Source: Verrucomicrobiota bacterium (GTDB taxonomy: Bacteria > Verrucomicrobiota > Verrucomicrobiia > Limisphaerales > UBA11358). From it: 64,000 nt of DNA. The notes beneath the pieces are model-generated. The model worked only from the letters and a program-made list of their open reading frames with translations. It did no database searches and was not told where the DNA came from. Of this stretch, positions 2,443 through 57,095 are shown in pieces (the stretch's first letter is position 1; each line of letters begins with the position of its first letter). The stretch covers positions 226-64,225 of the forward strand of contig JBEKMU010000001.1 in NCBI GenBank assembly GCA_049523555.1. Reading direction: 5' to 3'. Both the position numbers and the translations under genes were made by a program.

Positions 2443-2445
2443 GGC

Positions 2446-26876: not shown

Positions 26877-28994
26877 ATGGAATCCGAACGCAAAACTCTG
26901 GATGACCGCGCGAAAATGTCCGAGCTGGAGCGCATCCGGCACTCGTGCGCCCACGTCATGGCCACGGCCATTGCCAAACTCTGGCCGGACGCCCAGTTCG
27001 CCTCCGGCCCGGCGGTCGAAAACGGATTTTACTACGACGTCGAACTCGCCCACCGTATCTCGCCCGAAGATTTCCCGAAAATCGAGGAGGAGATGAAAAA
27101 GGAAATCAAGGCGAACCACACTTTTGAGAAAATCGTCGTCTCGCGCGAACAGGCGTTGGCGGATGCTCACCGGGGACGCCTTGGCGCATTGGCCGACCGC
27201 CAAGTCCCGAGCAAATTCAAGATTGGGAACCTTGCCGACATTCCCGAAGGTGAGCCAATCACCTACTACAAAAGCGGCGACTTCATTGATCTTTGCGCCG
27301 GGCCGCACGTGCTGCGCACCGGCAACATCGGCGCGTGCAAGCTCACGACCGTGGCCAGCACCTATTACAAGGGCGACGAGCGCAATCCGCAGCTCCAGCG
27401 CATCTACGGCACCGCGTTCAAGAACAAGACCCAGCTCGACGAGTATTTCAAAATGGTCGAAGAGGCCAAGCGCCGCGACCATCGCAAGATCGGGCAGGAA
27501 ATGGGCCTGTTCGCGATTGACACTGAATACGTCGGTCCCGGTCTGCCGCTCTGGTTGCCCAAAGGAACAGCGATTGTGGAGGAACTGGAAAAGCTAGCAA
27601 AGGAAACCGAATTTGCCGTCGGCTACGTGCGCGTAAAGACACCGCATATCGCTAAGGAGAAAATGTACCTTACCAGTGGGCACCTGCCGATTCTCTACAA
27701 GGAATCGATGTTCCCGCCGATGACACTTCGACAGCAATTTAGTGAAGCCCGTGAAGAAGATCGGATAAGAATCCAAGGCAAGATTCGGCTCTTGGAACAC
27801 AAAATTCAAGAACACTGCTTCGACGACCCGAAAGTGACTCAAATTCGACAGATGCGCGGTGAAGAACGTGGTTCAAGCGAAAATCAGTTTGCGGTCGTCG
27901 AGGAGTTGCTAACAAGCTGGAGAAAAAATCCTTCCGCAGTTCCGGATGCAAAAATGAGAATATTAGCGGAAGAATTGCACCAACTTGATGGGCAACTCAA
28001 AGAACTTCGTAAGAAGCTTGAGGAACATTATTACCTCAAAGCCATGAACTGCCCGCATCATCACCGCATTTTTGCGGCTGAGCCGCGCAGTTACCGCGAT
28101 CTCCCGTTGCGTCTGGCTGAATACGGCACCAACTATCGTTACGAGCAGTCGGGCGAGTTGTTCGGCCTGATGCGTGTCCGCTCGCTGAACATGAATGACG
28201 CGCATATTTATTGCACGCCGGAGCAATTCGCCGCCGAATTCAATGCGGTGAACGATTTGTACCTGAAATACTTTAAGATATTTGCTATCGACAAATACGT
28301 GATGCGCTTCAGCACGCACGATCCGTCCCGTCTCACCGGCGACAACGCCAAATTCGTCAACGAACCGGAGCTGTGGAAGCAGACCGAAGACATGGTCCGC
28401 AAGACACTCATTGATTCGAAGATCCCGTACGTGGAAGTGCCGAACGAAGCGGCGTTTTACGGCCCGAAGATTGACGTGCAGGTCTGGAGCGTCATTGGCC
28501 GCGAATTCACGCTGGCGACCAACCAGGTGGATTTCGCCGTGCCTAAGCGCTTCGGCTTGGTCTATCGCGACAGGGACAACACGGACAAGACGCCGTTGTG
28601 CATCCATCGCGCGCCGCTCGGCACGCACGAGCGGTTCATCGGCTTTCTCATCGAGCATTACGCCGGCAATTTCCCGCTCTGGCTCGCGCCCGAACAGGTC
28701 CGCGTGCTCACCATCGGCGAGGAGGAACCGCTCGTGGATTACGCGAAGAAAATCACGGCTGAGTTGCGGGCGAACATGGTCCGCGCCGAGGGCGATTACG
28801 GCACCGACAAGATCAACGGCAAAATCCAGCGCGCGGAAGAGGCGAAAGTGCACACGATGCTCGTCATCGGCCCGCGCGACCTGCAAGCCGGGAACGTGAG
28901 CGTTCGTCTGCACGGCAAAGGCAACCTCGGCGCGAAACCGAAGGCAGAGGTGATTGCCCGAATTTTGACGGCGATTCAGGAACGACAGACGTGA
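26877..28994 (+). CDS. thrS: Threonine--tRNA ligase; lacks the N-terminal TGS domain and carries an insertion of about 100 aa in the catalytic core
   Basis: Editing/SAD motifs (RHSCAHVMA, GDFIDLCAGPHV). Class II core ([64 protein letters not shown]). Anticodon-binding tail. Confidence 0.9.
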   Translation: MESERKTLDDRAKMSELERIRHSCAHVMATAIAKLWPDAQFASGPAVENGFYYDVELAHRISPEDFPKIEEEMKKEIKANHTFEKIVVSREQALADAHRGRLGALADRQVPSKFKIGNLADIPEGEPITYYKSGDFIDLCAGPHVLRTGNIGACKLTTVASTYYKGDERNPQLQRIYGTAFKNKTQLDEYFKMVEEAKRRDHRKIGQEMGLFAIDTEYVGPGLPLWLPKGTAIVEELEKLAKETEFAVGYVRVKTPHIAKEKMYLTSGHLPILYKESMFPPMTLRQQFSEAREEDRIRIQGKIRLLEHKIQEHCFDDPKVTQIRQMRGEERGSSENQFAVVEELLTSWRKNPSAVPDAKMRILAEELHQLDGQLKELRKKLEEHYYLKAMNCPHHHRIFAAEPRSYRDLPLRLAEYGTNYRYEQSGELFGLMRVRSLNMNDAHIYCTPEQFAAEFNAVNDLYLKYFKIFAIDKYVMRFSTHDPSRLTGDNAKFVNEPELWKQTEDMVRKTLIDSKIPYVEVPNEAAFYGPKIDVQVWSVIGREFTLATNQVDFAVPKRFGLVYRDRDNTDKTPLCIHRAPLGTHERFIGFLIEHYAGNFPLWLAPEQVRVLTIGEEEPLVDYAKKITAELRANMVRAEGDYGTDKINGKIQRAEEAKVHTMLVIGPRDLQAGNVSVRLHGKGNLGAKPKAEVIARILTAIQERQT

Positions 28995-29066
28995 AGACAA
29001 AGCAGGCATCTTGTGCACCTCACCTGCTGGTGGCCCTCTGCCAGGAGTCAGACGTCCCGCCCGAGG

Positions 29067-31004
29067 CTACTTTTTCAAACGAAAGAAATTGGCCCCGCCG
29101 GAAATCGGGTTCGTAACCGTGAATTGAAGATTCACAACCACCGGGATATTCGTCAGCGTGATCCAGGAATTCGGGTTGGCGAGATTGGTGGTGGTTTGCA
29201 GACTGAAATTCTGCGCCGAGGGCGGCCATGAAAGGGTGATGTTGGTTCCCGAAAGGTTCACCTGCAAAGTGGGGGCCTGCGAAACAGGCGAGACAACCAG
29301 TGCCATACTATGATACCCGCCCGCGGCGATGGCCAAGACGATGCTTAAACCGCCCGGCACCGTGCTTTGGCCAGCAGAATTGTCTCCCCAAGCCACGACG
29401 GTCCCGTCGGACTTGAGCGCCAAACTGTGTGCCCATCCCCCACCGATGGCCAGGACGTTGCTTAAACCGCCCGGCACCGTGCTTTGGCCAGCAGAGTTGT
29501 CTCCCCAGGCCACGACGGTTCCATCGGACTTGAGCGCCAGACTGTGTGCCCATCCCGCGGCGATGGCCACGACGTTGTTCAGACCGCCCGGCACCAAGCA
29601 TTGGCCATAATAGTCGTCTCCCCAGGCTACGACGGTCTCGTCGGACTTGAGCGCCAGACTATGTGTCCATCCCGCGGCGATGGCCACGGCGTTGCTTAAA
29701 CCGATCGGCACCGTGCATTGGCCAGAATAGTTGTATCCCCAAGCTACGACGGTCCCGTCGGACTGGAGCGCCAGACTGTGATACCCTCCCGCGGCGATGG
29801 CCACGACTTTGCTCAAACCGCCCGGCACCGTGCATTGGCCAGAGGAGTTGTCTCCCCAAGCCACGACGGTCCCGTCGGACTGGAGCGCCAAACTGTGATA
29901 CCCTCCTGCGGCGATGGCCACGACGTTGCTTAAACCAATCGGCACCGTGCTTTGGCCATAATTGTTGTTTCCCCATCCCCAAGCCACGACGGTTCTATCG
30001 GACTTGAGCGCCAGACTGTGATACGCTCCCGCGGCCATGGCCACGACGTTGCTTAAACCAATCGGCACCGTGATTTGGCCATAATTGTTGTCTCCCCAAG
30101 CCATGACGGTTCCATCGGACTGGAGTGCCAAACTGTGATACGCTCCCGCGGCCATGGCCACGACGTTGCTCAGACCGCCCGGCACCGTGCATTGGCCAGC
30201 AGAGTTGTCTCCCCAGGCCACGATGGTCCCGTCGGACTGTAGCGCCAGACTGTGATAATCGCCCGCGGCGATGGTCTCGACGTTGCTCAAACCACTCGGC
30301 ACCGTGCTTTGACCAGCAGAGTTGTCTCCCCAGGCCGCGACGGTCCCGTCGGAATTGAGTGCCAAACTGTGATTCCCTCCCGCGGCGATGGCCACGACGT
30401 CGCTTAAACCACCCGGCACCGTGCTTTGGCCGGCAGAGTTGTTTCCCCAAGCTACGACGGTTCCATCGGACTTGAGCGCCAGACTGTGATAATCGCCCGC
30501 GGCGATGGTCTCGACGTTGCTCAAACCACCCGGCACCGTGCTTTGGCCAGCAGAGTTGTTTCCCCAAGCCACGACGGTTCCATCGGACTTGAGCGCCAGA
30601 CTGTGATACCCTCCCGCGGCGATGGCCACGACGTTGCTCAAACCGCCCGGCACCGTGCTTTGGCCATAATTGTTGTCTCCCCAAGCCACGACGGTTCCGT
30701 CGGACTTGAGCGCCAAACTGTGATACTCTCCCGCGGCGATGGCCACGACGTTGCTTAAACCGCCTGGCACCATACTTTGGCCTTCATAATTACGTCCCCA
30801 CGCCACGACGGTCCCGCCGGGCTTGAGCGCCAAACTGTGATACCCTCCCGCGGCGATGGCCTTAAAGCGGGTGCCGGGCTGAACCACGGGCATCGCTTGG
30901 TCTCCCCACGAAGCAACACTCCCGGTTTGCGTCGCCTTGGCTGGATGTGACACAAGGAATGCCGCTCCGCACGCCATTACAAGATTGAACATCTTCCGCT
31001 TCAT
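29067..31004 (-). CDS. Secreted RCC1/BLIP-II repeat protein with a C-terminal beta-sandwich-like tail
   Basis: ATG at 31004 (MKRKMFNLVMACGAAFLVSHPAKA) is preferred. About a dozen or more tandem repeats of the pattern ..VVAIAAGGYHSLALKSDGTVVAWGDNSAGQSTVPGGLSN.., typical of RCC1 blades. Confidence 0.8.
   Translation of the reverse strand: MKRKMFNLVMACGAAFLVSHPAKATQTGSVASWGDQAMPVVQPGTRFKAIAAGGYHSLALKPGGTVVAWGRNYEGQSMVPGGLSNVVAIAAGEYHSLALKSDGTVVAWGDNNYGQSTVPGGLSNVVAIAAGGYHSLALKSDGTVVAWGNNSAGQSTVPGGLSNVETIAAGDYHSLALKSDGTVVAWGNNSAGQSTVPGGLSDVVAIAAGGNHSLALNSDGTVAAWGDNSAGQSTVPSGLSNVETIAAGDYHSLALQSDGTIVAWGDNSAGQCTVPGGLSNVVAMAAGAYHSLALQSDGTVMAWGDNNYGQITVPIGLSNVVAMAAGAYHSLALKSDRTVVAWGWGNNNYGQSTVPIGLSNVVAIAAGGYHSLALQSDGTVVAWGDNSSGQCTVPGGLSKVVAIAAGGYHSLALQSDGTVVAWGYNYSGQCTVPIGLSNAVAIAAGWTHSLALKSDETVVAWGDDYYGQCLVPGGLNNVVAIAAGWAHSLALKSDGTVVAWGDNSAGQSTVPGGLSNVLAIGGGWAHSLALKSDGTVVAWGDNSAGQSTVPGGLSIVLAIAAGGYHSMALVVSPVSQAPTLQVNLSGTNITLSWPPSAQNFSLQTTTNLANPNSWITLTNIPVVVNLQFTVTNPISGGANFFRLKK
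29290..30880. repeat. Tandem array of highly similar repeat units of about 150 nt, encoding the RCC1 blades
   Basis: The same nucleotide strings (e.g. ccgcccggcaccgtgctttggccagcaga, gtcccgtcggacttgagcgccaaactgtg) recur with regular spacing along the gene. Confidence 0.8.
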
Positions 31005-31342
31005 GGTCTTCGGCTTCCCGGCTAATTTACGCGTCCCGGGCTGAAGTGATCCGATTCTATCAAAAGCCAGCCGGTCGTGCAAGGGATGTTTGCTTTATTC
31101 CAAGGTGCAGAGGCGGCCTTCGTTTCCGGAGGCAGCTTGGGGGTATTCAAATTTTCGTTTTACGTCGGTAGCGGCGTTGGTGTTGGTGCTTTCGCTTTGG
31201 CTTTTGCGCCGCCGGAGTCTAAGACAGTACGGAAATTGTTTGGCAGATGCGGCAAGTTGAAGTTTCCGTATGGCGGGTTGATTGGCAGGCTTGCCAGCGA
31301 TTGAGCCTGTTGGGCCGGATTGGACGGGATTGTTTTCATTCA

Positions 31343-31922
31343 GCCATGAACTGCCCGCATCATCACCGCATTTTTGCGGCCGAGCCGCGCAGTTATCGCA
31401 ACTTGCCGTTGCGGCTGGCGGAATACGGCACCAACTATCGCTACGAGCAGGCCGGCGGGTTGTTCGGTCCTCATGCGCGTGCGGTCGCTCAACATGAACG
31501 ACGCGCACATCTATTGCACGCCGGAGCAGTTCGCGCAGGAGTTCAACGCGGCGAACGAGCGGTTCATCGGCTTTTTAATCGAGCATTACGCCGGCAATTT
31601 CCCGCTCTGGCTCGCGCCCGAGCAGGTGCGCGTCCTCACCATCGGCGAGGAGGAGCCGCTCGTGGATTACGCGAAGAAAATCGTGGCCGAGTTGCGCGCG
31701 AACATGGTTCGCGCCGAAGCCGACTACGGCACCGACAAAATCAACGGCAAAATCCAGCGCGCGGAAGAGGCGAAAGTACACACCATGCTCGTCATCAGCC
31801 CGCGCGACTTGCAGGCCGGGAACGTGAGCGTTCGTCTGCACGGCAAAGGCAACCTCGGCGCGAAGCCGAAGGTAGAATTCATTGCTGACATTTTGCGGGC
31901 GATTAAAGAGCGGCGGGCGTAA
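31343..31922 (+). pseudogene. thrS: Truncated, frameshifted duplicate of the thrS 3' part, corresponding to thrS from nt 28041 to the stop
   Basis: [37 protein letters not shown] is in one frame. A 1-nt indel then shifts the frame to [21 protein letters not shown]... About 0.38 kb is missing (joins ...FNAANE to [17 protein letters not shown]...). It ends ...[26 protein letters not shown]. Confidence 0.85.
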
Positions 31923-31931
31923 GTTGTGGAG

Positions 31932-31987
31932 CGCGGAGCATCTCCGCGTATATGAAAGGCCAGGAACTCGCGGAGCAATACTCCGCG
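31932..31987 (+). repeat. Two hairpins with the same 7-bp stem CGCGGAG/CTCCGCG directly after the thrS pseudogene stop
   Basis: cgcggag-cat-ctccgcg (31932-31948) and cgcggag-caata-ctccgcg (31969-31987). No U-tract, so a terminator function is uncertain. Confidence 0.4.
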
Positions 31988-32082
31988 CCTCCCGTCCGCC
32001 TCCTTGACAAAGGCAACGTTGACGCGACCCTGAAGGCGGGAGTAATTCCAGAAATCGTTTCGGTGGTCCGGCATAGAAGTGT

Positions 32083-32646
32083 GTGAACGTATTCTTTCAA
32101 AAAATTCCCGGCTTTTTCACCGGCTGGTTCGGTGATGGTCCGTGGCGTTCCAAATCCGTTCTCGCCGCGTTTGCCGTGGTCTTGGTCGGCCTGGGGTTTT
32201 GGTGTTCTGACATCAAAAACGGTCCGCCGCAAAAAGAAATGGACAACGCGGCGGCCAACGCATCAGGCATCACGCCGCCCAACGCCGCAGGCGCCGTGGC
32301 CAGCTCGCACTGGAATTGGGGCAAACCATTCCCCGGTTACGTGCGGATGGGCGCGAGTTATGTGGCAGGATTTTGCATCGGCTGGTTTTTCCGAAAGGTG
32401 ACGCGGTTGGTCTGGGTTGTTGCCGCACTGCTCATCGCGTTGCTCGCGTTTGGGAAATACGTTGGCTGCGACACGACACACACGCAGGAGCAAGTGAAAC
32501 GCAGCGGCGAGTGGGTGCAGCACGAGGCGATGGCAACAAAGGATTATCTCAAGCATGTGCTGCCGTCGGCTACGGCGGGTGGTGTCGGAACTTTTCTGGG
32601 CTTCCGACGCCGAAGCAAAGTGGGCGCGTCAAAAGCGGTAGCTTGA
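32083..32646 (+). CDS. Small membrane protein (possibly FUN14-like)
   Basis: 187 aa with several hydrophobic segments. GASYVAGFCIGWFFRKVTRLVWVVAALLIALLAFGKYVG resembles the FUN14 pattern. Weak call. Confidence 0.4.
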   Translation: MNVFFQKIPGFFTGWFGDGPWRSKSVLAAFAVVLVGLGFWCSDIKNGPPQKEMDNAAANASGITPPNAAGAVASSHWNWGKPFPGYVRMGASYVAGFCIGWFFRKVTRLVWVVAALLIALLAFGKYVGCDTTHTQEQVKRSGEWVQHEAMATKDYLKHVLPSATAGGVGTFLGFRRRSKVGASKAVA

Positions 32647-32662
32647 GAGTGCTTTCCTAAGA

Positions 32663-32746
32663 GGCGAACAAGGCTGTGCCGGTGCGAAGCCGAGGGCGGA
32701 AGTCATCGCGGACATTTTGCTGGCAATCAGGGAGGGGCGAGCTTAA
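32663..32746 (+). pseudogene. Short remnant of the thrS 3' end (third copy)
   Basis: Translates as ...GAKPRAEVIADILLAIREGRA*, versus thrS ...GAKPKAEVIARILTAIQERQT*. Same orientation, with the stop in the equivalent position. Begins 17 nt after the stop of the 32083-32646 gene. Confidence 0.7.
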
Positions 32747-32838
32747 ATATGCAGGCCATGAGTTGACGTGTTAAAAGGCGCAGCACGGAGAATTGAGGTG
32801 CTGTGTTTGACTGACAAACAATCGCAGGGAAAACCGAC

Positions 32839-33684
32839 ATGGAAATTAAAAAAACCGTCATTACCGCTGCCGGACAAAACCAGCGCACGCTGCCGTTGCA
32901 AACCCTCGTGGATGGCAATGGCCAGACCAAATCCGCCCTGGCCATCATTGTCGAAGAATCCCTTCAGGCCGGCATCGAGGAGATTTGTGTCATCATCAGC
33001 CCCGGTGACCAGGATGCCTACCGGGCCGCCGCCGGGCCGCATGGCCGGCTGTTGAAATTCGTCGAGCAAACCCGGCCGCTCGGCTATGGTCACGCCGTCT
33101 GGTGCGCGCGGGAGTTCACCGGTTCATCACCGTTCCTGCTGCTGGTGGGAGATCACCTCTACCTCAGCCGGAACGCGAAGCGCTGCGCACAGCAACTGGT
33201 CGAAACGGCCGCCGCCGAAGCCTGCACCGTCTCCGCCGTGCAGGCCACGCACGAAAGCAAGCTGCCTTACTACGGCGCAGTGGGGGGCCGGCTGGCCGGA
33301 GCGCGCAAGGGGATTTATATCGTGTCGGACGTGATGGAAAAACCCACGCCCACCGAGGCCGAGCAGAAGCTCATCGTGCCCGGCTTGCGCGTCGGCTACT
33401 ACCTCTGTTTCTTTGGCATGCACGTCCTGACGCCACGGGTGATGGCGTTGCTTGAAGAGGACGTGGCCGCAGCCGGCAAAAATGGGCGGGTGCATTTGAG
33501 CGCGGCGTTGTCGCGGCTCGCGGAGCACGAACGGTATCTGGCGTGTGAACTGGAAGGCCGCCGTTTCGACATAGGTGTGCAATACGGCTTGTTGACCGCG
33601 CAACTCGCGCTGGCGCTCAACGGCAAGGACCGCGACGAAGTTCTTTCCGGCCTCGTCGAGTTGCTGGCGCTGGGCGGCAAGTGA
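32839..33684 (+). CDS. Sugar-1-phosphate nucleotidyltransferase (GalU/UTP-glucose-1-phosphate uridylyltransferase-like)
   Basis: [18 protein letters not shown] at the position of the G-x-G-T-R-x-LP-x-TK motif. Also [22 protein letters not shown] and LLLVGDHLY. Confidence 0.65.
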
Positions 33685-33725
33685 TTATTCATCGCTCCTA
33701 AACCCAATCATTTTCGTTTTTTTCC

Positions 33726-37045
<3,320 letters not shown>

Positions 37046-37061
<16 letters not shown>

Positions 37062-37115
37062 AACCGAAGGCGGAAGTCATCCCGGATATTTTGGATGTGA
37101 TCAACGAGCGGCGTT
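37046..37115 (+). pseudogene. Short remnant of the thrS 3' end (fourth copy; stop lost)
   Basis: Translates as GNLGVKPKAEVIPDILDVINERRS, versus thr[25 protein letters not shown]. Confidence 0.7.
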
Positions 37116-37179
37116 CTTGGCGCCGACGATCCGGCTGTCAATCCTAGCAGCCAGCAAAACGTACATGAAATATAGCCAG

Positions 37180-38067
37180 TTAGCCTGGCCCCGGTGATGA
37201 AATTGTTGTGGGTGGAGGGAGCGTGTAAACCGGCGCAGTTCCGGGAAAGAAAGAATCAAGATTCGTGAACACCAATGGCTTTCGCAGGATATATTTTGGA
37301 TCTTCAACACGCAGTTGCAGCAATGTCTTCGTCGGTGTAAAAACTCTTACTGAAGCCACACCGCTATGTATCACTGAAGCCACATCATTGCTCATCTCAT
37401 AACCTCTGCGCTTCCAAGAGACAAAATAGATCGGCACGAATTTCCCGCGAGGCGAATGAACGTAGCTGTCGTCAGGCTTAACAGTAACCTGACTATCCCG
37501 ATTGATTGCCTTCACATCCATCGAAACGGCCGCCAGCCATTGAGTTGCCAATTGGTAAGCTTGGTTGGTATTCATGCGGCTGACCGGCCATGTGTATGAA
37601 TCCTGATACCTATAACAGTCTTCCGTCTGGTGCGTCCCTTCCAGATAGGAAAACCTGTTGCCTTGGGAAACATAATAACAATACTTTTTCGTGGTAATGC
37701 TTCCGATGCTCTTGTTAACGTAGTTGTATCCAAACGGGGTGACCACTGCTTCGACTAAATTCGATTCTGTGATCGGCAACTCGCCCGGTAATTGTAGTTC
37801 TTTTGCTACCCGATTGGCCTCCTGCAAAACCAGCTTAAAAGCCGCTTCCTGATATTGCCTGGTTGTGAAACTGTGGTCCAACCATACAACATTTCCATTG
37901 GTATCAACCATTCTTGGCACGCCGGCTGGAAGTTCTCGTCCCTTCGGATCATCCGGAAAAAGAGGCTTCGGGCCACCGGACGAAGGTTCTTGCGCCGCCG
38001 CATCAAATAAAACGACTAGAGCGCAGATAATGAGCAATGATTTAGCAAATGAATTGTTGGCTTTCAT
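37180..38067 (-). CDS. Hypothetical secreted protein in a visibly AT-richer segment
   Basis: N-terminal hydrophobic signal (SLLIICALVVLFDAAAQ). No recognisable motif. Composition differs from the neighbouring genes. Confidence 0.5.
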   Translation of the reverse strand: MKANNSFAKSLLIICALVVLFDAAAQEPSSGGPKPLFPDDPKGRELPAGVPRMVDTNGNVVWLDHSFTTRQYQEAAFKLVLQEANRVAKELQLPGELPITESNLVEAVVTPFGYNYVNKSIGSITTKKYCYYVSQGNRFSYLEGTHQTEDCYRYQDSYTWPVSRMNTNQAYQLATQWLAAVSMDVKAINRDSQVTVKPDDSYVHSPRGKFVPIYFVSWKRRGYEMSNDVASVIHSGVASVRVFTPTKTLLQLRVEDPKYILRKPLVFTNLDSFFPGTAPVYTLPPPTTISSPGPG

Positions 38068-38143
38068 AAAAATATGCACTGCTCGGTGTTAGTAGAAGCG
38101 ACATAGCGATTATCTTGGTTAGCGGTGCAATCTCAACATCCGG

Positions 38144-40801: not shown

Positions 40802-40804
40802 CAC

Positions 40805-40894
40805 GACCCCTGCAGTTCGTGGGTAATGTTGAGCGAAACCGAAGACGGAAGCGTTTGCGGATATTTGGCAAACGCTTAGAAAGCAACGGGCGTA
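40805..40894 (+). pseudogene. Short remnant of the thrS 3' end (fifth copy, with an internal deletion)
   Basis: cctgcagttcgtgggtaatgttgagcg aligns to thrS cctgcaagccgggaacgtgagcg. This is followed by AKPKTEAFADIWQTLRKQRA*, versus AKPKAEVIARILTAIQERQT*. Begins 4 nt after the rSAM stop. Confidence 0.65.
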
Positions 40895-40903
40895 AACGGT
40901 GCT

Positions 40904-43900: not shown

Positions 43901-44656
43901 CGCCGGGCGCAGGTAAAACTGCTCCGGTTCGTAACGCAGCCGTTTCGTGTCGGCGAGCTGCGTCTGCGTGCCGATGCAAATCAGGCAATCGTGCGCGTGC
44001 GAATGGCTTTTCTCGATGTAATGAACGTCGTTCGTCGCCACGAGCTTGAGGCCAAATTCCTTCGCCCACTGGATTAAATGGCGGTTCACCTTGGCCTGTT
44101 CCGCGATGCCGTGGTTTTGCAGTTCGAGGTAAAAATTGTCCGCGCCAAGCGTTTGCCTGAACCAGTCCACCGTGTCGCGCGCCTTTTGAATTTGGTCCTT
44201 CAAAATCCATTCCGGAATCTCGCTGGCAAGGCAGCCGGACATTGCAATCAAACCCTCCTTGTGTGCGGCGAGAAGCTCCTTGTCTATGCGCGGCTTGTAA
44301 TAATAGCCGGTGAGATGCGCCTCGGTGGTGAGCTGGATGAGATTTTTGTAGCCGGTCGCGTCCCGGGCCAGCAGGCCGAGATGGTGATAAACATCACGTC
44401 CGCCGCTGCTGGTTTTCTTCTCCAGCCGGCTGCCCGGCGCGACATAAACCTCGCAGCCGATGATGGGTTTGATGCCTTTTTCGCGCGCGGCCTGGTAAAA
44501 ATCAATCGCGCCGTAGAGCACGCCGTGGTCGGTGATGGCGAGCGCGGGGAATTTCAATTCATGGGCCTTGTCCACCAGCCGGTCCAGCCGGCAGGCGCCA
44601 TCGAGCAACGAATACTCGGTGTGCAAATGAAGATGAACAAAGTCCGCGTGCGACAT
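40904..44656 (-). CDS. dnaE: DNA polymerase III alpha subunit
   Basis: PHP domain start [21 protein letters not shown], palm/fingers motifs ([31 protein letters not shown]), HhH region [12 protein letters not shown] and a C-terminal OB domain. 1250 aa including two in-frame 25-aa inserts. Confidence 0.95.
41963..42037 (-). repeat. 75-nt palindromic element inserted in frame in dnaE (copy A)
   Basis: Outer arms gtaggacaggc...gcctgtcctac, inner palindrome gacaggctggaagcctgtc. Encodes [25 protein letters not shown] immediately before [13 protein letters not shown]. Confidence 0.8.
43565..43639 (-). repeat. 75-nt palindromic element inserted in frame in dnaE (copy B)
   Basis: The termini are the same as in copy A (tgtaggaccggcatc...gagacaggctggaagcctgtccgacgtt), with a variable centre. 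Encodes [24 protein letters not shown]. Confidence 0.8.
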
Positions 44657-44702
44657 GAGGACAGTTTAACTTCCAATCACGAAGACACCAAGACGCAAAG
44701 CT
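44624..44702. repeat. dnaE start/leader segment, proximal copy of a direct repeat of about 78 nt
   Basis: tgaagatgaacaaagtccgcgtgcgacatgaggacagtttaacttccaatcacgaagacaccaagacgcaaagct is repeated at 47293-47370. Confidence 0.8.
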
Positions 44703-44918
44703 TTGAAAAATTAAACAGCTCGGATTTGCCGGCATTGGGGATGGCCGACGGTGCGATACGTCTTGACCGGCTGACCGTTGGCGACCTTTTGCCACGGCGG
44801 AAATTAAAATAAGATTCTATTAAAATTAAAATAAGGTTGACACTGCGCGACACAGCCGTCACGCTCAAAAACGTCGCAATTGGTAAAAAACAAAAAGCCG
44901 TTCTACCGAACTCGTAAA

Positions 44919-47225
44919 ATGTTGAACAGGAAATTTGCTATAAGGACGTTCATGGTATTTGGATTGTTGGCCGGTGTGACTGGTGTCGCTCAAAACGGCG
45001 ACACATCGTTGCATCCCCCTTTACAAAACAAACAGGCCGTGGTGCCGCCGACAATCATACCCCTCAATCTTCCGACCTTAAAAATTGCACCTGTTCACGA
45101 TTTGGACTCGTTGCAAGCTGCTCAACGTCAGACACACAACCAAGTCTTGGCGGCGCTCCAAGACCTCATCAGCCGTAACGGACCAAAAATTCCACAGGTT
45201 GCCTCTCCCCAACCCGTGTATGGACTCCGCCCCGGGCTTGGACTATTCGATCAGACAAATTTAGCTGGCAACGCAATAATTACACAGTTGGCGCCTATTG
45301 CCTCAATCTTCGCTAATGGCGACCAACTCGGCAATCGCCATGGCGGTAACAATGTTGATGACTGGAAGATCTTCAACGCAGGCTTTTTCTCCGATCCCCC
45401 GGCTTTTTGGCAAAATGATTCTGGCGCGCCATTAACTGGAATATTTAATTCCACTTTAGCGATGACCTCACCGGACCCCGTTGCAACGACAACGCCAAAC
45501 GGTTCAGGATTGGTTGGAGTTACCGTGCAGGGTGCCTTGGTTGTCGGTGGGAATGTCGTCAGTTTGGTGATTCCCTGTTACTATCTGCCAGGCTGGGGCG
45601 CGTTCATCTTCAACCATGCTCACTTCGAAGTTCAAGTCGAGCAGCTAAACTCTTCAGGCCAGTGGTCTCAAATGACGCGGGCCGCTTTGGATATGTACGC
45701 CAATGGTGCGACTGCGACCGGCTACACGCCGCCGACGGGCGTACCGGATACGGTAATTAACGTTGCTGGAAACACCCCGTACTCAATGCCATGGATTGTG
45801 CCCATTGCGCTCCCGGATGTGGCAAATACCTTGAGGGTGGACCTTTATGCTGAACTCTACGATACGGACGAAAGTGTTACTTCCCCGGGTTGGTCATTTC
45901 CGAACGGGTCGGTCTACGCATCTCAAGTCGGTCAGCAACCGCTTGATCACCAGAATGTTGGAACAATCATCAGTGATGCGACAGCAGGGCATAATTGGGA
46001 TACATCTCCCGCGTTCCAAGTGATAATCGCACCCACCTATTTTGGACAAATGCATGCCCTCCCGTACACCATCATTTACACACCACCAGGAAACAACAGC
46101 GATGTGCAATTTAAAACCACCTCGACCTATGGTACTATGATGGGTTTCCAAGTTCAAAACCAGACACAGGTGCAGGTCGCCAATGTTGTTGGGCAGTCAT
46201 TTAAGATTGGTGCAAACTACTCATTTAATCTGGCAGGCGTCGATTTGGGGCCCAACAGTCAGGCTGGGATCAATGCAGCTGCCACGTTCGGGAACCAAAT
46301 TACCACGACATCCACGGTGCAAACCCAGACGAATAACACAGAAACTCTTACAATAAACTCAAGCTTGGCAACGACCTTTGAAGAAAACGTCGCCAAAGGT
46401 AATCCGCCGCCACCAGCCGGCGATCAGGTGCAACGGTGGGAAGAACCCTTCTGGGGAGACATGATCGACGTAATTATTAACCCGGTGTTCGCGATATGGA
46501 GTTATCCCTCTCTTGGTGAAGGAGAGCCGGCCTTTTCGGCGGCACAGGTCATTGCGTACGGTCAAGGATCCCAAAGCGACTTGCTCCTCCCGGTAAACTC
46601 GCTGTACTACGCAGTACTAGTCGGAACCAATTACACTGTTCCTTCGACAACCAATACTTTCACGCCACAGGAATGCGCTGCTCTGCTCAACTTGGATCCA
46701 TTTTATTCCGGCGGAGCTTGGCAGGGAGCGTCGCTTGATCCAGCACGCTTTGTGCTCATTAGTGCTCCAGGGAATTCCCTGCCGAACGTTTCCAGGAAAT
46801 ATGACTCGACGGAAACAACGAGTTATCAGTCCCAACTCCAAGTCACGGGACAATATGGCAATACAACTGCAAATCAATCAGGCCAAAATTCTGCCACCTT
46901 TGGCGGCAATATTGGTCCAATCAGCGGTAGCGCGACGTTGAACCAACAACAAACTGCGACAACCAACATTCAAGTACAATATCAGTCGCAAGTTCAAACT
47001 AACATTGGGAATAGTGTGGAGTCGGTGGTGACGATTCAGGATTCGGCTTCATTAGGATCGATGAAAGTTTACCAGGATCTGGTTTTCGGAGGTCTTGCAG
47101 TTCAGGATCCTAACGAGCCAAACACTGGGCCATTGATTCAGATAGTGGTAGAGCCGTTTCAAGGCCCCTTAGTCCACAGACCTTACGTCAATCAGTATCT
47201 ACAGCATTCGCCTGTGACTCACTGA
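44919..47225 (+). CDS. Hypothetical secreted protein (about 768 aa), rich in Thr/Gln/Asn/Ser/Gly
   Basis: ATG at 44919 gives a signal-like N-terminus MLNRKFAIRTFMVFGLLAGVTGVAQ. No recognised domain. AT-richer than the flanks. Lies between the two copies of the dnaE 5' segment. Confidence 0.55.
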   Translation: MLNRKFAIRTFMVFGLLAGVTGVAQNGDTSLHPPLQNKQAVVPPTIIPLNLPTLKIAPVHDLDSLQAAQRQTHNQVLAALQDLISRNGPKIPQVASPQPVYGLRPGLGLFDQTNLAGNAIITQLAPIASIFANGDQLGNRHGGNNVDDWKIFNAGFFSDPPAFWQNDSGAPLTGIFNSTLAMTSPDPVATTTPNGSGLVGVTVQGALVVGGNVVSLVIPCYYLPGWGAFIFNHAHFEVQVEQLNSSGQWSQMTRAALDMYANGATATGYTPPTGVPDTVINVAGNTPYSMPWIVPIALPDVANTLRVDLYAELYDTDESVTSPGWSFPNGSVYASQVGQQPLDHQNVGTIISDATAGHNWDTSPAFQVIIAPTYFGQMHALPYTIIYTPPGNNSDVQFKTTSTYGTMMGFQVQNQTQVQVANVVGQSFKIGANYSFNLAGVDLGPNSQAGINAAATFGNQITTTSTVQTQTNNTETLTINSSLATTFEENVAKGNPPPPAGDQVQRWEEPFWGDMIDVIINPVFAIWSYPSLGEGEPAFSAAQVIAYGQGSQSDLLLPVNSLYYAVLVGTNYTVPSTTNTFTPQECAALLNLDPFYSGGAWQGASLDPARFVLISAPGNSLPNVSRKYDSTETTSYQSQLQVTGQYGNTTANQSGQNSATFGGNIGPISGSATLNQQQTATTNIQVQYQSQVQTNIGNSVESVVTIQDSASLGSMKVYQDLVFGGLAVQDPNEPNTGPLIQIVVEPFQGPLVHRPYVNQYLQHSPVTH

Positions 47226-47292: not shown

Positions 47293-47370
47293 GTTGAAGA
47301 TGGACAAAGCCCGCGTGCGACATGAACGCAGTTTAGCTTCCAATTACGAAGACACCAAGACACAAAGCTC
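47293..47370. repeat. Distal copy of the dnaE start/leader segment (orphan dnaE 5' fragment)
   Basis: On the minus strand it reads ATG TCG CAC GCG GGC TTT GTC CAT CTT CAA CAG TAA (MSHAGFVHLQQ*), versus dna[13 protein letters not shown]. The upstream leader is also conserved: I counted 7 mismatches over the 64-nt stretch 47307-47370 aligned to 44638-44702. Confidence 0.8.
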
Positions 47371-50820: not shown

Positions 50821-50830
50821 GGTGTTCGCG

Positions 50831-52910: not shown

Positions 52911-53912
52911 ATGACAATCGCGAAAAAGCCAATTCCTGGAGAAAACAATCGCTTGGCGAAAGACAATGAGCGACCGATACCGCCACTTCCAGAAGATCAC
53001 AAACTCTTCGTCATCTCGGGCCGGTGCGGCCGTTTGGGGAATCGCATCATCCTGTTCGCCAATTTCATTGCCTTGGCGGAGGAGCAGGGACATCGCGTGA
53101 TCAACCCGACATTCCATTCCTATGCCAGGTTCTTCAAGGCGACGCGGGGGGACATCTATTGCCAGTATCCCCCCGCAATGCGAAGAAGCTGGTGGGACAC
53201 GGTTCCCGGCGTTGGCGGTGCCATCCGCGGCACGCGGATCTTCTTTCATGTGGCCCGCGCGGCCGGCTTGCTGAATGAGCGTTATCCAATTTTTGGCAAG
53301 AGAATCTTCACCTTGCGCCAATGCCCGGCGCAGAAAATCACCGCGCTCGACGATCCGGAGGTTCAAGCCAAAATCCGCGACGCCAGGATCGTTTTCGTGA
53401 ATGGCTGGACCTTTCGAGCGCCCGGCCTCGTGCAGCGGCACGCGGAGAGAATAAAATCCTACTTCCAGCCGGTTGCAGAGATCGAGCAAGCCAGTTTCAA
53501 GGCCGTGGCTCAGCTCCGGCAGCACGCGGATATCGTTGTGGGTGTTCATGTCCGCCATGGAGACTTCGCCAATTGGCGGGGCGGCAAGTTCTTCTTCCCG
53601 GCTTCACGATATGCGGCCTGGATGAATGAACTGGCGGAGCAGTTTCCGGGCTGCAAGGTGTCTTTTTTCGTGTGTAGTGACGAACCCAGGCACGAGCATG
53701 AATTCCCGGGGTTGCGGGTGGGCATCGGCGCCGGTTCGGCCGTGGGAGACATGTGTGCGCTGGCGAAGTGTGATTATATTTTTGGACCCTTGAGCACCTT
53801 TTCGATGTGGGCGTCTTTCTACGGCCATAAACCGCTTTTTCTCATCCACGACAGCAAGACCCGAATCGAACGTGAAAAGTTCTACATCCCCGATCTGGCC
53901 GAGATCCCTTAA
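52911..53912 (+). CDS. Putative glycosyltransferase, GT11/fucosyltransferase-like fold
   Basis: ATG at 52911. GRCGRLGNRIILFANFIALA resembles the GxLGNxxF motif. C-terminal FFVCSDEP...GDMCALAKCDYIFGPLSTFSMWASFYG resembles the GT11 C-terminal motif. Family assignment is tentative. Confidence 0.45.
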   Translation: MTIAKKPIPGENNRLAKDNERPIPPLPEDHKLFVISGRCGRLGNRIILFANFIALAEEQGHRVINPTFHSYARFFKATRGDIYCQYPPAMRRSWWDTVPGVGGAIRGTRIFFHVARAAGLLNERYPIFGKRIFTLRQCPAQKITALDDPEVQAKIRDARIVFVNGWTFRAPGLVQRHAERIKSYFQPVAEIEQASFKAVAQLRQHADIVVGVHVRHGDFANWRGGKFFFPASRYAAWMNELAEQFPGCKVSFFVCSDEPRHEHEFPGLRVGIGAGSAVGDMCALAKCDYIFGPLSTFSMWASFYGHKPLFLIHDSKTRIEREKFYIPDLAEIP

Positions 53913-54146
53913 ACTTCCCGCTCTGCAACAGGCGTTGCGGTTGGCGGCGGAAGAAAGCGGGAGTTCTGCTATTTATCGGCGGCAAAATCACATTCCCACC
54001 TTTCTGTTGAGGGGCATGTTTTCTTCGGTGGCGAATGGACACGGCGTGCAATTGGCACCTTGGAGAAGCCGATTGACTCAATCCCGGTCCGATGTTCTTG
54101 AGGTCGGACAATTTAACCCGGCACGTTTTACCGTGAGCATGGCCGC

Positions 54147-55295
54147 TCAGACGCGGACCGCTTTGCGCTCTACCGCCACCCGGTAAACACTCACGGTTTG
54201 TCCGGCAGTTTTGCTCCAGGAAAAATGTGCGCTCCGGGAAAAGCCTTTGTTGACCAGCAAACCGCGCCAGGATTTGTCCATGAGCATGCGGGTCATGGCC
54301 CCGGCCAGTGCCGCGGGATCGTGCGGATCAACATACACCGCCGCCTCGCCGGCGACTTCGGGCAGGCTGCTATTGGGCGAGGTAATTACCGGACAGCCGA
54401 GCTGCATCGCTTCCAGCACCGGCAGGCCAAAGCCCTCATACGAGCTGGGATAAACCAACGCCACCGCCTTGCGGTAGCACGCTGCCAACAGCGGGTCCTC
54501 CCCGCTCACGTGCCAGACGCGATTCTCCAAGTGGTGTTTTTGCAACCACTCGTTTTCGTCGCCGGTAAAGGCCGGACCGCCGAAAAAAATCACGCCGGTC
54601 TGAGAGAACCGGTCCGCCAGCAGGGCCATGGCGCGCAAAAGAGTCATGCCATTCTTGTAGCTTTCGCGGTTGTTGCCGACGAAAAGGAAAAAGTGGCCGG
54701 GGATGAAATCAGGCAACGGTGCCGGAGTAATTTCACCCAGGCAGGTGGCAAGCGGTGTGACGGTGGCTTTGCCCCGGGCGCCTGGATGGAAATGTTCCAA
54801 GTCCCGCCGGGTGGCTTCCGAAACCGTCAACACGGCATCCGCTAGGCGCAGCGTCCCGGCTTTTTGCACTGGCAAATGATCCGATCCTTTTGAAGGCGAT
54901 TGTTTGTCGAGCCATTCGGGAATCATGTCGTGAAACGTCACCACCGTGGCGTCAGCCCACCGTGCGATGAAGGGATCCACGGCATAATAGGAAGGATGGT
55001 AAACCACGGTGGGAGTGCGGCACCGCACCGAAAGGAACGTGAGCCGCCGCCAGAGCCGGGAGAAACGTTTGACCTGGGTGTTGATGCGCCAGTGGTCGCG
55101 GCGCGCCAGGGAGATATTCCGAAGCGAGGTGCTCCCCGCCAGTTGGCGCAGATGGATGTTTCGCGAAATACCCCCGAACACCATCACCGAAACATCCGGG
55201 CACCGCGCCATGTGCTCCGCCAGTGTACAAACATAGCGGGAAATGCCGCCAGCGTCCTGGATCAAAAACATCTGTTCGTCGAAAAAAACCTGCAT
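54147..55295 (-). CDS. Glycosyltransferase family 4 (GT-B, Glycos_transf_1)
   Basis: ATG at 55295 (MQVFFDEQMFLIQDAGGISRY). C-terminal YPSSYEGFGLPVLEAMQLGCPVITS is the EX7E-type GT4 motif. Confidence 0.8.
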   Translation of the reverse strand: MQVFFDEQMFLIQDAGGISRYVCTLAEHMARCPDVSVMVFGGISRNIHLRQLAGSTSLRNISLARRDHWRINTQVKRFSRLWRRLTFLSVRCRTPTVVYHPSYYAVDPFIARWADATVVTFHDMIPEWLDKQSPSKGSDHLPVQKAGTLRLADAVLTVSEATRRDLEHFHPGARGKATVTPLATCLGEITPAPLPDFIPGHFFLFVGNNRESYKNGMTLLRAMALLADRFSQTGVIFFGGPAFTGDENEWLQKHHLENRVWHVSGEDPLLAACYRKAVALVYPSSYEGFGLPVLEAMQLGCPVITSPNSSLPEVAGEAAVYVDPHDPAALAGAMTRMLMDKSWRGLLVNKGFSRSAHFSWSKTAGQTVSVYRVAVERKAVRV

Positions 55296-55390
55296 GACTG
55301 CCTTGCGTGCGGGATTTGGTTCAGCCCATGCCACTGGGTGTTGAAGCCCTGCGCGCGGAGGGTTGAGGGTCGGGCACGCACGGAACCCCG

Positions 55391-56401
55391 TCACCCTCCC
55401 TCGCACGGTCGCGTTCGCTCGTGCTCCCCCGCCGCACAAAGCGCGTTCATCTTCCACGAGTGCAAACGCGCCCGCGCCCGCTGCCGTTGCGTGCGCAGCA
55501 GCCAGGCGCGGGGATTCAAAATCCAAGGAAACTTGTTCTTCCGGCAACGATCAAGGGCGGCCCTGTTTTCCACAAACCGCCGTTGAAGTCGAAAACCTTC
55601 CTTCCAGCCCAGGCGTTCCAGGTCCGTTTCCGTCACAAGGTTGCTGCGTTGCCACTCTTTCACAGCCTCCCCCAGGATTTGATCGGCACCCTTCATTTTT
55701 TGGCCCCGCAAGCAGTCTTCGGCGGTCGCAAAGGTGGGGTGGATCGCAAAAGTGGAAAATTTCTCTGACACCACCGTCCAAGTGACCTCGGCGGCGTGCA
55801 GGGTGCTCCACGCGCCGTCGGCCACCATGCCAACCCCGGTTGGGAAGGGATACCGTTTCAGGCACGACGTGCGGAAAAGATCACTCGCGCAACTGCCCGT
55901 CAGCGCGCTGGCCGCGTGGAAGAAGGCGAAGACAACCGCTTCGAGACGGCGCAGCGTCCGTGGCGACCGGATGCCGAGTGCTTGAATGACATCGTCAATG
56001 GGCCACTTAATTTCCACAGGCCGGCCATCCAGCTTATGCAAGTTTGGTTTGCTGACCACGACATCGCTCTGATGTAAAAGCGCGGTAGCCAACAATTTTT
56101 CCATTCCCGCCCTGGTGATGGTGTCGCACACCGTCGCAATGTAGGTATATTCGGACTGCAAGTGTTGGATGCCAAAATTCCAGGACGCATATAGACCGGG
56201 CGGATGGGAAAGAAATTGCACGTGCGGGTGACGGAGCCTCGTTTTGAGCAATTCCAGTGTTCCATCCGTGGAAAAGCTGTCCACGACAACGACCTCCGTC
56301 GCCATGTCAAGCCAGACTTCCAGCGCCTCCAAATACCGGGGCAATAGCGCCGCGGAATTGCGCGTGGGGATTAAAACACCCAAAGACCTTGAGGCATTCA
56401 T
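55391..56401 (-). CDS. Glycosyltransferase family 2-like
   Basis: LGVLIPTRNSAALLPRYLEALEVWLDMATEVVVVDSFSTDGT is the classic GT2 N-terminal pattern. Start is ambiguous (56401 or 56479). Confidence 0.65.
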   Translation of the reverse strand: MNASRSLGVLIPTRNSAALLPRYLEALEVWLDMATEVVVVDSFSTDGTLELLKTRLRHPHVQFLSHPPGLYASWNFGIQHLQSEYTYIATVCDTITRAGMEKLLATALLHQSDVVVSKPNLHKLDGRPVEIKWPIDDVIQALGIRSPRTLRRLEAVVFAFFHAASALTGSCASDLFRTSCLKRYPFPTGVGMVADGAWSTLHAAEVTWTVVSEKFSTFAIHPTFATAEDCLRGQKMKGADQILGEAVKEWQRSNLVTETDLERLGWKEGFRLQRRFVENRAALDRCRKNKFPWILNPRAWLLRTQRQRARARLHSWKMNALCAAGEHERTRPCEGG

Positions 56402-56580
56402 GGCCAAAATCGGGCGGTCATTTTTCCAGGAGAAACCATTACCTGCCTGAACTGTGATCAGGCACCCTTTTCCATACATGAGGTGCCTTCTAGGCGGGAT
56501 GTTCTGTTAACAAATGTAGCTTGTCAAACTTGAACCATCCACCGGCCCGGCGCGATCCCATGGCTGACGCGAGGGGCGGC

Positions 56581-56838
56581 AAAGTGGCTTTTTTCGTGTG
56601 TAGTGACGAACCCCGGCACGAGCACGAATTCCCGGGATTGCGAGTGGGAATTGGCGCCGGTTCCGCCGTGGGAGACATGTACGCGCTGGCCAAGTACGAC
56701 TATATTTTTTGGGCCCTTTGGCACTTTTTCGATGGGGGCGTCCTTCTACGGCCATAAACCGCTTTTTCACATCCATGACCGCAGGGTCCGAATCGAACGT
56801 GAAAAGTTCGGCATCCCCCATCTGGCCGAGATACCGTG
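56581..56838 (+). pseudogene. Frameshifted duplicate of the 3' end of the GT11-like gene (52911-53912)
   Basis: VAFFVCSDEPRHEHEFPGLRVGIGAGSAVGDMYALAKYDYIF is in one frame, then ...FSMGASFYGHKPLFHIHDRRVRIEREKFGIPHLAEIP* in another. Similarity continues about 50 nt past the stop, as it does after 53912. Confidence 0.85.
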
Positions 56839-57095
56839 AACTCCCCGCTCTGCAACCTGCGTTGCGGGTCGGCGGGAGGAAGTGAGGGAGGACATGACCT
56901 CATTTCCAGGCTGTTTGAGTTTGTGCTATTCACTGTCGCGCGCTTTTGATTGAATCCAGCCTGTGAAAACCAACCGGCTTGGCGAAGGCAAAAAAACCAA
57001 ACATAGCTGTCACGCAAATCAGTTTTGCCTTTCCATCAGGCGTCTGGATTTTGACAATTTCAACCGGCGAGCCGATTGATTATGCCCTCACCAAA

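Follow-up and report, generated by a model that had tools for sequence, protein, structure and literature searches.

Repeated ends of thrS, dnaE and a GT11-like gene around inserted genes in an uncultivated Verrucomicrobiota genome: probable scars of homology-anchored gene gain

Several systems are known in which genes accumulate beside a conserved gene and leave copies of its end behind. In the effector-immunity arrays of type VI secretion systems (T6SS) in Vibrio cholerae, and in the orphan 3' modules of Rhs and contact-dependent inhibition (CDI) loci, modules enter beside a conserved anchor and the older ones are pushed distally (PMC5361080). Displaced 3' fragments persist as orphans, no integrase is involved and the surrounding genes are mosaic; homology-facilitated illegitimate recombination (HFIR) has been proposed for these arrays (PMC5361080). 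Additive or tandem integrase islands at tRNA genes or gene 3' ends also grow by sequential insertion, with copies of the gene end between cassettes and with variable content (PMC3698932). Campbell-type integration of circularised DNA places the insert between direct repeats of the homology patch (PMC3240628). Integron arrays consist of small stacked cassettes with a repeated site after each, the newest being proximal. Comparable accretion of islands is found for cis-mobilizable elements (CIME) and integrative and conjugative elements (ICE). Each of these systems shares the features named with the DNA described here, a stretch of 64,000 nucleotides (the window) from a Verrucomicrobiota bacterium of the Limisphaerales, UBA11358 (assembly GCA_049523555.1, contig JBEKMU010000001.1), in which the ends of thrS, dnaE and a GT11-like glycosyltransferase gene are repeated around inserted genes.

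The window also differs from each of them. In contrast to the T6SS and Rhs arrays, the anchor is a housekeeping gene that is kept intact and not a variable toxin gene, and the cargo consists of unrelated accessory genes in either orientation, with no obvious selection like that for retention of an immunity gene. The pattern is moreover found at a gene 5' end, that of dnaE, where it duplicates the promoter. Unlike in integrase islands, no integrase, fixed att core or constant crossover was found, and the cassettes hold one to few genes. The laboratory case of Campbell-type integration relies on long identical homology, whereas the patches seen here go down to 43-75 nt and are diverged, and no circles were observed. 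As opposed to integrons, we found no intI and no attC-like structure, cargo lies on both strands, and the repeated site is a piece of a coding gene.

Repeats were located by self-BLAST of the window. A profile hidden Markov model (HMM) built from 66 thrS 3' ends was run with nhmmer on the window and on the loci of relatives, which are given L numbers below. The sample comprised 80 loci from genomes and 80 from metagenomes, centred on relatives of thrS, about 2.2 Mb with flanks of at most 10 kb per side; orphan counts refer to the approximately 128 thrS loci with enough downstream sequence. The nearest thrS genes all belong to uncultivated Verrucomicrobiota (Limisphaerales/Pedosphaera-like metagenome-assembled genomes, MAGs) and are at most 79% identical at the amino acid level over the full gene. 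Locus L079 comes from the closest independent MAG.

Repeat sets were found at all three loci, with E values of 2e-21 to 3e-140 in the self-BLAST and at the positions where a sequence-only reading of the window had placed them. The only other dispersed repeats in the 64 kb are the tandem repeats of an RCC1 gene, a pair of tandem paralogues at 11.9-19.3 kb and two 75-nt elements within dnaE. The proximal copy lies in an intact gene and the distal copies are fragments with frameshifts or deletions at all three loci, as had been claimed. The earlier description of the cargo held in that it shows no similarity to its neighbours; the deviating composition, named there as an alternative to unrelated function, applies to some of the cargo only. 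GC content at third codon positions (GC3) is 52% in the gene for a 781-aa protein and 49% in a 299-aa gene, compared with about 70% in core genes, and is ordinary in the RCC1 gene and two glycosyltransferase genes.

At thrS, the intact gene is followed by a series of orphan copies of its 3' end, each of which closes a block of cargo genes (Table 1). Copy 2 matches the gene in two parts, 28040-28255 against 31342-31558 (86.6% identity, E 1e-68) and 28624-28992 against 31552-31920 (89.7%, E 3e-140), and carries a 368-nt internal deletion and a frameshift; the profile match to it spans 31803-31925. The repetition of the thrS end noticed in the sequence-only reading was thus confirmed by self-BLAST, with a correction of the number of orphans, which is five according to the profile HMM and not four. 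The nucleotidyltransferase (NTP)/UDPGP cassette behind copy 3 lies downstream of the thrS genes of L079 and L044, too, and in L081 its NTP gene is found near a thrS that appears split. The radical SAM gene is a separate cassette between two copies in L128. In L014, L020, L056 and L065 thrS and dnaE are convergent neighbours, and L020 represents an empty site where they are 385 nt apart. Copy 5 suggests a relic of such an older convergent junction between thrS and dnaE.

At the start of dnaE, 44628-44702 and 47295-47369 are 89.3% identical over 75 nt (E 2e-21). The leader is conserved in L017, L020, L056 and L065. The orphan matches the native junction of HMGL-like gene, leader and dnaE in L088 at 86%, and the L086 junction also matches. 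L088 is an empty site, with the HMGL-like gene immediately upstream of dnaE. In L083, the gene for the 781-aa protein adjoins dnaE and there is no orphan, a donor-like arrangement. An independent event is seen in L086, where two other genes lie between dnaE and the HMGL-like gene. The orphan there combines the old leader with some 50 nt of dnaE. In front of the functional dnaE stands a new, unrelated leader, which begins at the start codon. A look-up of the exact 781-aa cargo protein found no record.

Two side observations concern dnaE. The orphan leader in the window still has the conserved promoter-like sequence, the ATG and, behind it, a stub of 11 codons, and is directed antisense into the 3' end of the 781-aa gene. 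The essential dnaE gene itself contains two 75-nt palindromic elements at 41963-42037 and 43565-43639 (minus strand), which resemble repetitive extragenic palindromic (REP) sequences or miniature inverted-repeat transposable elements (MITE) and have the core GACAGGCTGGAAGCCTGTC. They are inserted in frame, and each adds about 24 aa (VGQASSLS...RQDA.PT). The two sites are free of insertions in more distant relatives; in L088 the first site holds a degraded element and the second an insertion of another kind.

At the GT11-like gene, for which we found 386 homologues, the two copies (53648-53957 and 56574-56882) are 86.2% identical (E 4e-100). L087 is an empty site, in which the GT11 gene is followed directly by a homologue of the GT2 gene that starts at 56979 in the window. 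The orphan and its flank match L087 at 84%, and this match continues for about 150 nt past the end of the match between the two copies of the window. Relatives were also used to find out which of the copies is native. No relative comes as close to either copy (about 80%) as the copies do to one another (87%), and no crossover could be placed. Both pairs, the dnaE 5' end with its leader around a secreted-protein gene and the GT11 3' end with its downstream stretch around opposite-strand glycosyltransferase genes, had been described beforehand and were recovered by the self-BLAST.

Table 1. Features of the three loci in the window, and RAYT genes (see text) in related loci.
Feature	Position	Strand	Basis or remark
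thrS (threonyl-tRNA synthetase), intact; 3' end is the recurring anchor	26877..28994	+	Pfam tRNA-synt_2b, HGTP_anticodon, tRNA_SAD
Cargo 1: secreted RCC1-repeat protein	29067..31082	-	Pfam RCC1_2, E 2e-149
thrS orphan copy 2, pseudogene, corresponding to thrS 28040-28255 and 28624-28992	31342..31922	+	self-BLAST, profile
REP hairpin pair without RAYT (REPIN relic), between copy 2 and copy 2b	31926..31990		pattern search and reading
thrS orphan copy 2b	31992..32089	+	nhmmer E 1.9e-7
Cargo: FUN14-family membrane protein	32083..32646	+	Pfam FUN14
thrS orphan copy 3, hybrid of two L079 copies flanking the PMT_2 cassette	32670..32749	+	nhmmer E 1.3e-11, alignment
Cargo: nucleotidyltransferase gene and 1111-aa UDPGP-domain gene	32839..37061	+	Pfam
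thrS orphan copy 4	37045..37120	+	nhmmer E 1.6e-13; kept in L079 at 21776-21854
Cargo: two hypothetical genes	37180-38079, 38144-38908	-	Pfam scan
Cargo: B12-binding radical SAM gene	39245-40801	+	Pfam
thrS orphan copy 5, most degraded	40832..40897	+	weak nhmmer E 7e-4; 6 nt from dnaE stop
dnaE, intact; 5' end is the anchor	40904..44656	-	open reading frame; 78-89% aa identity to dnaE of relatives; Pfam domains of identical L082 gene
Proximal dnaE 5' repeat: first 29 nt of coding sequence and 46 nt of leader/promoter	44628..44702	-	self-BLAST
Cargo: 781-aa secreted protein, without Pfam family	44880..47225	+	Pfam, GC3
Distal orphan: dnaE leader and 29-nt coding stub, contiguous with HMGL-like gene	47295..47369	-	self-BLAST
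GT11-like glycosyltransferase, intact; anchor	52914..53912	+	weak Pfam Glyco_transf_11 match
Proximal GT11 3' repeat: 265 nt coding and about 45 nt downstream	53648..53957	+	self-BLAST, alignment
Cargo: GT4 (54147-55295) and GT2 (55391-56479) glycosyltransferases	54147..56479	-	Pfam; both missing at the L087 site
Distal orphan GT11 3' end, frameshifted, contiguous with GT2 gene 56979-57926	56574..56882	+	alignment with L087
RAYT (Y1_Tnp) gene in L004, first position after thrS	10764-11696		inverted REP flanks
RAYT (Y1_Tnp) gene in L025, first position after thrS	11992-12855		inverted REP flanks
RAYT (Y1_Tnp) gene in L130, first position after thrS	4144-5046		inverted REP flanks
RAYT (Y1_Tnp) gene in L101, first position after thrS	2365-3304		inverted REP flanks
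RAYT (Y1_Tnp) gene in L124, first position after thrS	10960-12031		inverted REP flanks
RAYT (Y1_Tnp) gene in L033, first position after thrS	12060-13192		inverted REP flanks

The copies differ from their genes mainly at third codon positions. This holds for 43 of the 66 differences between copy 2 and thrS, and for 497 of 801 copy-versus-gene differences in all (62%; p = 8e-62 against 1/3 and 2.5e-22 against 0.45). In a local duplicate under neutral decay, differences would be even over the codon positions, and we roughly estimate that at most about 45% of them would be at third positions, including synonymous changes of the gene itself. In the best preserved copies, the distal copy of L037 and that of L027, the share is 80%. 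This excess shows that the two ends of each pair diverged under purifying selection, as functional genes in different lineages, and one copy is thus foreign (xenologous). Tandem duplication, and any copying of the resident target, are thereby excluded. Together with the unrelated cargo, the excess bears out the claim of the sequence-only reading that these are insertions and not tandem duplications. The part that it gave to homology in the flanking gene is supported as well.

Each orphan is a former gene end that is still joined to its former downstream genes, because units of copy and cargo are conserved with different genes upstream of them. In L079, L002 and L044 this applies to the units 'copy + PMT_2' and 'copy + NTP/UDPGP', and the same cassettes occur in varied combinations in the window, L079, L033, L044, L002 and L128. 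The divergence from L079 changes sharply at copy 3. To its left, the FUN14 protein shares 70% amino acid identity with that of L079; the protein identity of the next cassette is 94%, and homology at 92% to L079 DNA begins at 32679, within the copy. In brief, the left flank and edge of copy 3 are like the L079 copy that follows FUN14, and its body and right flank are like the L079 copy that precedes the NTP gene. A PMT_2 cassette lies between those two L079 copies and is missing from the window. A variant arising from repeat to repeat, which the sequence-only reading had proposed to look for, is thereby found, and it is clear that orphans are reused as crossover points after insertion.

The anchor gene itself is a mosaic with a foreign end, which fits the excess at third positions, the new dnaE leader of L086 and shifts in identity at the thrS 3' end. 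In its last 100-300 nt, the identity of thrS to relatives changes abruptly, examples being falls of 95% to 58% with L002 and of 89% to 69% with L079. The nucleotide identity to L002 and L007 is 84% for thrS and 93% for the adjacent major facilitator superfamily (MFS) gene. A sliding-window comparison of thrS, copy 2 and relatives for a clean breakpoint yielded mosaicism only.

A few further observations on thrS are reported here for their own sake. A 100-nt segment in the motif-3 region (28594-28693) is 93-98% identical to all relatives, synonymous sites included, and the next 300 nt are 58-89% identical. Codons ~285-385 (27723-28028) form a charged insertion of about 100 aa without a DNA alignment to the thrS of relatives, and copy 2 starts just after it. 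In L081, a 4.6-Mb MAG contig, codons 337-705 of thrS are found at 10001-11083 (+) and codons 4-284 at 15659-16504 (-), 4.6 kb away. Next to the 3' part are a RAYT fragment and REPs. Either an inversion has run through thrS, or this is a pseudogene and the true gene lies elsewhere. The RCC1 gene next to thrS contains about 13 tandem repeats of 117 nt (39 aa) at 29268-30860, 62-88% identical, and a short-read contig of the same population ends inside them. A 'thrS end + RCC1' unit common to the window and L037 was considered and rejected, the match being confined to the repeat domains.

The pattern recurs in related genomes. With the profile scan we found 46 thrS orphans in 24 of the ~128 loci (~19%), with a maximum of five per locus (L128). 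All of them lie downstream of thrS and on the same strand; an equal amount of upstream sequence was searched and contained none. Their homology to thrS ends no more than 3 nt past the stop codon in every case. The point inside the gene at which the homology starts differs between orphans, from 47 to 556 nt ahead of the stop, with 954 nt reached in the window, and 19 of the 46 begin 47-78 nt before the stop. This cluster could be due to erosion, to the detection floor, to a minimal homology patch or to a preferred crossover. The idea that copies diverge with their distance from the intact gene was borne out as a loose trend in the window and failed in L037, where the distal copy (95.5%) is nearer to thrS than the middle one (89.5%).

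Candidates for further examples at other genes are direct repeats around one or two genes with one copy in the end of an adjacent open reading frame (ORF). They were seen in L076 (5861-6040/6806-6982) and L080 (6617-6678/7921-7982), and with the same layout in L086 (12061-12148/13360-13447 and 17280-17333/18968-19021). Two repeat pairs of this set flank opposite-strand GT61 genes in a glycan cluster. Dispersed repeats in 87 loci were direct rather than inverted in a ratio of 37:7, and 20:1 for pairs of at least 100 nt, a ratio that is only indicative given the thrS-centred sample.

In the window, an MFS transporter gene is followed by thrS (+), the RCC1-repeat gene (-), the FUN14-family gene, and the nucleotidyltransferase and 1111-aa UDPGP-domain genes. 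Next are two hypothetical genes (-), the radical SAM gene, dnaE (-) and the gene for the 781-aa secreted protein (+). HMGL-like, DegT, GT9 and MsbA genes (all -) come after these, followed by the GT11-like gene (+), GT4 and GT2 genes (-) and further GT2 genes (+). At 11911-15972 and 16001-19321 there are two adjacent large genes (1353 and 1106 aa) of lower GC content (49-54%) that have a 933-nt N-terminal region in common at 84%. This repeat, at 11965/16058, was rejected as a case of the gene-end pattern, since it is the N-terminal part of two ordinary tandem paralogues. The nearly equal spacing of the thrS (2928 nt) and GT11 (2927 nt) repeats is a coincidence, as their inserts have no sequence in common.

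Searches for a recombinase, a site or an element gave the following results. A phmmer search with XerC, XerD and Hin against 3,885 + 2,838 = 6,723 ORFs of at least 120 aa, from about 170 loci and the window, gave no match at E<=10. Pfam scans of 62 + 30 cargo ORFs revealed no recombinase beyond Y1_Tnp genes among the families listed, which in one scan were the top 25. The youngest events, in L008 (93.7%), L037 (95.5%) and L004 (91%), are likewise without a recombinase and have cassettes of one to few genes. Cargo functions are unrelated and encoded on either strand, and include RCC1, FUN14, sugar-nucleotide enzymes, radical SAM, glycosyltransferases, proteases, glycoside hydrolases and a LysR regulator with a hydrolase. 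Within the copies, we looked for a conserved core and saw only codon periodicity and no fixed crossover position, and a search for a common hairpin, attC-like or terminator-like structure in them was negative, with folding z-scores of -3.1 to +1.8. A diversity-generating retroelement was rejected because substitution spectra are not adenine-specific and there is no reverse transcriptase among the cargo. An IMG/VR scan with the thrS C-terminus found no provirus of the clade that carries a thrS fragment; the single match was an unrelated low-GC phage encoding a truncated ThrRS. The sequence-only reading had also raised an element family that carries host gene ends. With no recombinase, unconserved cassette ends, a boundary that ranges from 28 to 954 nt and unrelated cargo in either orientation, this idea was not upheld.

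The Y1_Tnp genes are REP-associated tyrosine transposase (RAYT) genes, and their arrangement is like that of REPIN-RAYT systems (PMC3116915; REPIN, a pair of inverted REPs), in that a Y1_Tnp gene with inverted REPs is the first cassette in several relatives and the window retains a REP pair. RAYTs are usually single-copy, vertically inherited and flanked by their own REPs (PMC3116915). Differing from these systems, each unit here is bracketed by direct repeats, namely the thrS end and an orphan copy, is confined to thrS stops in the sampled sequence, and belongs to one of two RAYT/REP families that use the same thrS site. All seven RAYT-like ORFs and 28 of 30 REP matches lie at thrS ends, a count from about 2.2 Mb of thrS-centred loci. 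The left REP begins 3-5 nt after the stop, and the right REP stops 0-5 nt before the next copy. REPs of family A flank RAYT genes directly after thrS in L004, L025 and L130. The only family-A match in the 64 kb is at 31969-31987, and its degenerate partner at ~31929-31948 was noticed only by eye. One cassette type (L004, L025, L033, L101, L124, L130) is a REPIN-RAYT unit; the whole architecture is not.

We suggest that the repeats are probably scars of additive horizontal gene gain anchored in conserved genes, for which no dedicated recombinase is needed. DNA would arrive from a related Verrucomicrobiota lineage, about 5-13% diverged in the case of the more recent, longer copies, and would bear a conserved gene end (thrS 3', dnaE 5' or GT11 3') together with the donor's own neighbouring genes. 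Homologous recombination would take place inside the conserved gene, and the far side would be joined illegitimately. The resident gene would be kept complete with a partly foreign end and with the new genes adjoining it, and the displaced resident gene end would persist as an orphan attached to its old neighbours. Repeated rounds at thrS would stack modules, usually with the newest nearest to thrS, and the orphans could later act as short homology patches through which modules are deleted, inserted or swapped.

The molecular route and the entry of the DNA into the cell are inferences. The route would be either HFIR of a linear fragment or circularisation of a fragment followed by a RecA single crossover. 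Either way, one joint would be homologous and the other illegitimate, and the outcome would look the same. In HFIR, the linear fragment would be anchored by RecA in the conserved gene and its far end joined by microhomology; its properties, and the alternative of circularisation and single crossover, have been described (PMC3240628). We lean slightly towards an anchor in the long gene over one in a short patch, because the dnaE patches of 43-75 nt were already diverged and the orphans are contiguous with their old context.

Several points weigh against gene gain of this kind. Laboratory experiments yield HFIR only rarely (PMC3240628). To place five consecutive joints within the last kilobase of thrS, one would have to assume a strong bias or survivorship, and random joints do not predict that 19 of the 46 orphan starts cluster at 47-78 nt. 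The interval between thrS and dnaE contains 3' orphans of thrS and none of dnaE, which hints at something specific to thrS, and REP/RAYT units lie exactly at thrS stops in 6-7 loci. When the junction of the 781-aa gene is compared with L083 and L088, 28 nt match neither, and there is no close donor in which microhomology could be read. The search for recombinases covered about 10 kb per side with three query proteins and partial Pfam scans (the top 25 families in one).

The likeliest rival is the route proposed in the sequence-only reading. Promiscuous circles would enter by a RecA single crossover through a short patch and make up a cassette pool that is driven by homology and propagates itself. 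At 47 nt, the shortest patch has about the minimal length for RecA recombination. The hybrid copy 3 is the expected product of a crossover within a patch, the reshuffled combinations of cassettes among loci would follow, and in E. coli linear DNA mostly ends up circularised and integrated by a single crossover (PMC3240628). Nevertheless, deletion between two orphans explains copy 3 equally well, the circle is hypothetical, none having been observed, and at dnaE in the window and in L086 the patches of 43-75 nt were below 100% identity and diverged when they recombined, which makes them poor RecA substrates. We regard such a pool as possible, if somewhat doubtful. The REP and RAYT data could instead speak for site-specific capture at the thrS stop, by a recombinase acting in trans or occasionally resident, for example a Y1 (HUH) RAYT acting on REPs, which would build an integron-like array and leave the dnaE and GT11 cases as unrelated scars. 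Agreeing with this are the concentration of RAYT ORFs and REPs at thrS ends with exact spacing and in two families, the constant first place of RAYT cassettes, the REP relic of the window exactly between copies 2 and 2b, the many orphans that begin 47-78 nt before the stop and the restriction of orphans to the thrS side of the thrS/dnaE interval. Yet most arrays, including the present thrS end of the window, are without RAYT or REP, long flanking duplications are not among the known products of Y1 transposases, left boundaries reach 954 nt, and the same layout is seen without REPs at the dnaE 5' end, the GT11 3' end and other genes. The loci were, moreover, all sampled around thrS, and the RAYT unit may be just another cassette (PMC3116915). 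We therefore hold site-specific capture to be unlikely. A particular form of it, in which the thrS stop is an integrase-free capture platform and breaks or single-strand intermediates made by RAYT/REP move cassettes tagged with a 50-80-nt thrS end, seems to us quite unlikely; if true, the platform would be an analogue of the integron made from a housekeeping gene end and a domesticated transposase.

Decayed integrase-borne islands, similar to CIME or tRNA islands, with attB in the thrS 3' end and with integrases that were lost or reside elsewhere, would produce the observed topology as well: tandem accretion at a gene 3' end, direct gene-end repeats and an intact gene. Additive islands of this type are known at tRNA genes (PMC3698932). 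We consider this origin improbable, as even the youngest events (L008, L037, L004) are devoid of an integrase, the crossover position is not fixed, the core is not conserved and IMG/VR contained no clade provirus with a thrS fragment. That the repeats are in-situ duplications that then decayed, or an artefact of assembling mixed strains, might be thought of given the divergence of the copies and the metagenomic source. Against this, the cargo is unrelated to the neighbouring DNA, the third-position excess cannot be reconciled with a local duplicate that decays neutrally, and the layout recurs in independent assemblies from other populations and samples; for this population, a separate assembly from short reads shows it too. 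In JGI sample 3300038429, two short-read contigs agree with the window perfectly or with 1 mismatch over 16877-29508 and 38240-58431, and L079 shares the orphan-bounded NTP/UDPGP cassette at 92% identity. Because these contigs and L079 carry the same architecture, an assembly error is unlikely as its source, and duplication or artefact taken together we find extremely improbable.

Orphan arrays of the HFIR type are already known. New here are their formation at the ends of housekeeping genes, their presence in an uncultivated phylum and a frequency that is relevant to the clade. If homology-anchored gain is the correct reading, orphan ends are marks of integrase-free gene gain that can be read from sequence: they would tell the entry point, the older neighbours and, roughly, the divergence between donor and recipient. 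The REP/RAYT link, if causal, would give domesticated Y1 transposases a part in genome plasticity. For the host, essential genes gain partly foreign ends and even new promoters, and orphan promoters can point into the cargo. The scar marks ~19% of thrS loci, where as many as five may be stacked, and it is found at dnaE and in glycan clusters too. Illegitimate recombination anchored by homology therefore looks like an everyday means of acquiring accessory genes in these uncultivated soil and peat Verrucomicrobiota, beyond its rarity in the laboratory.

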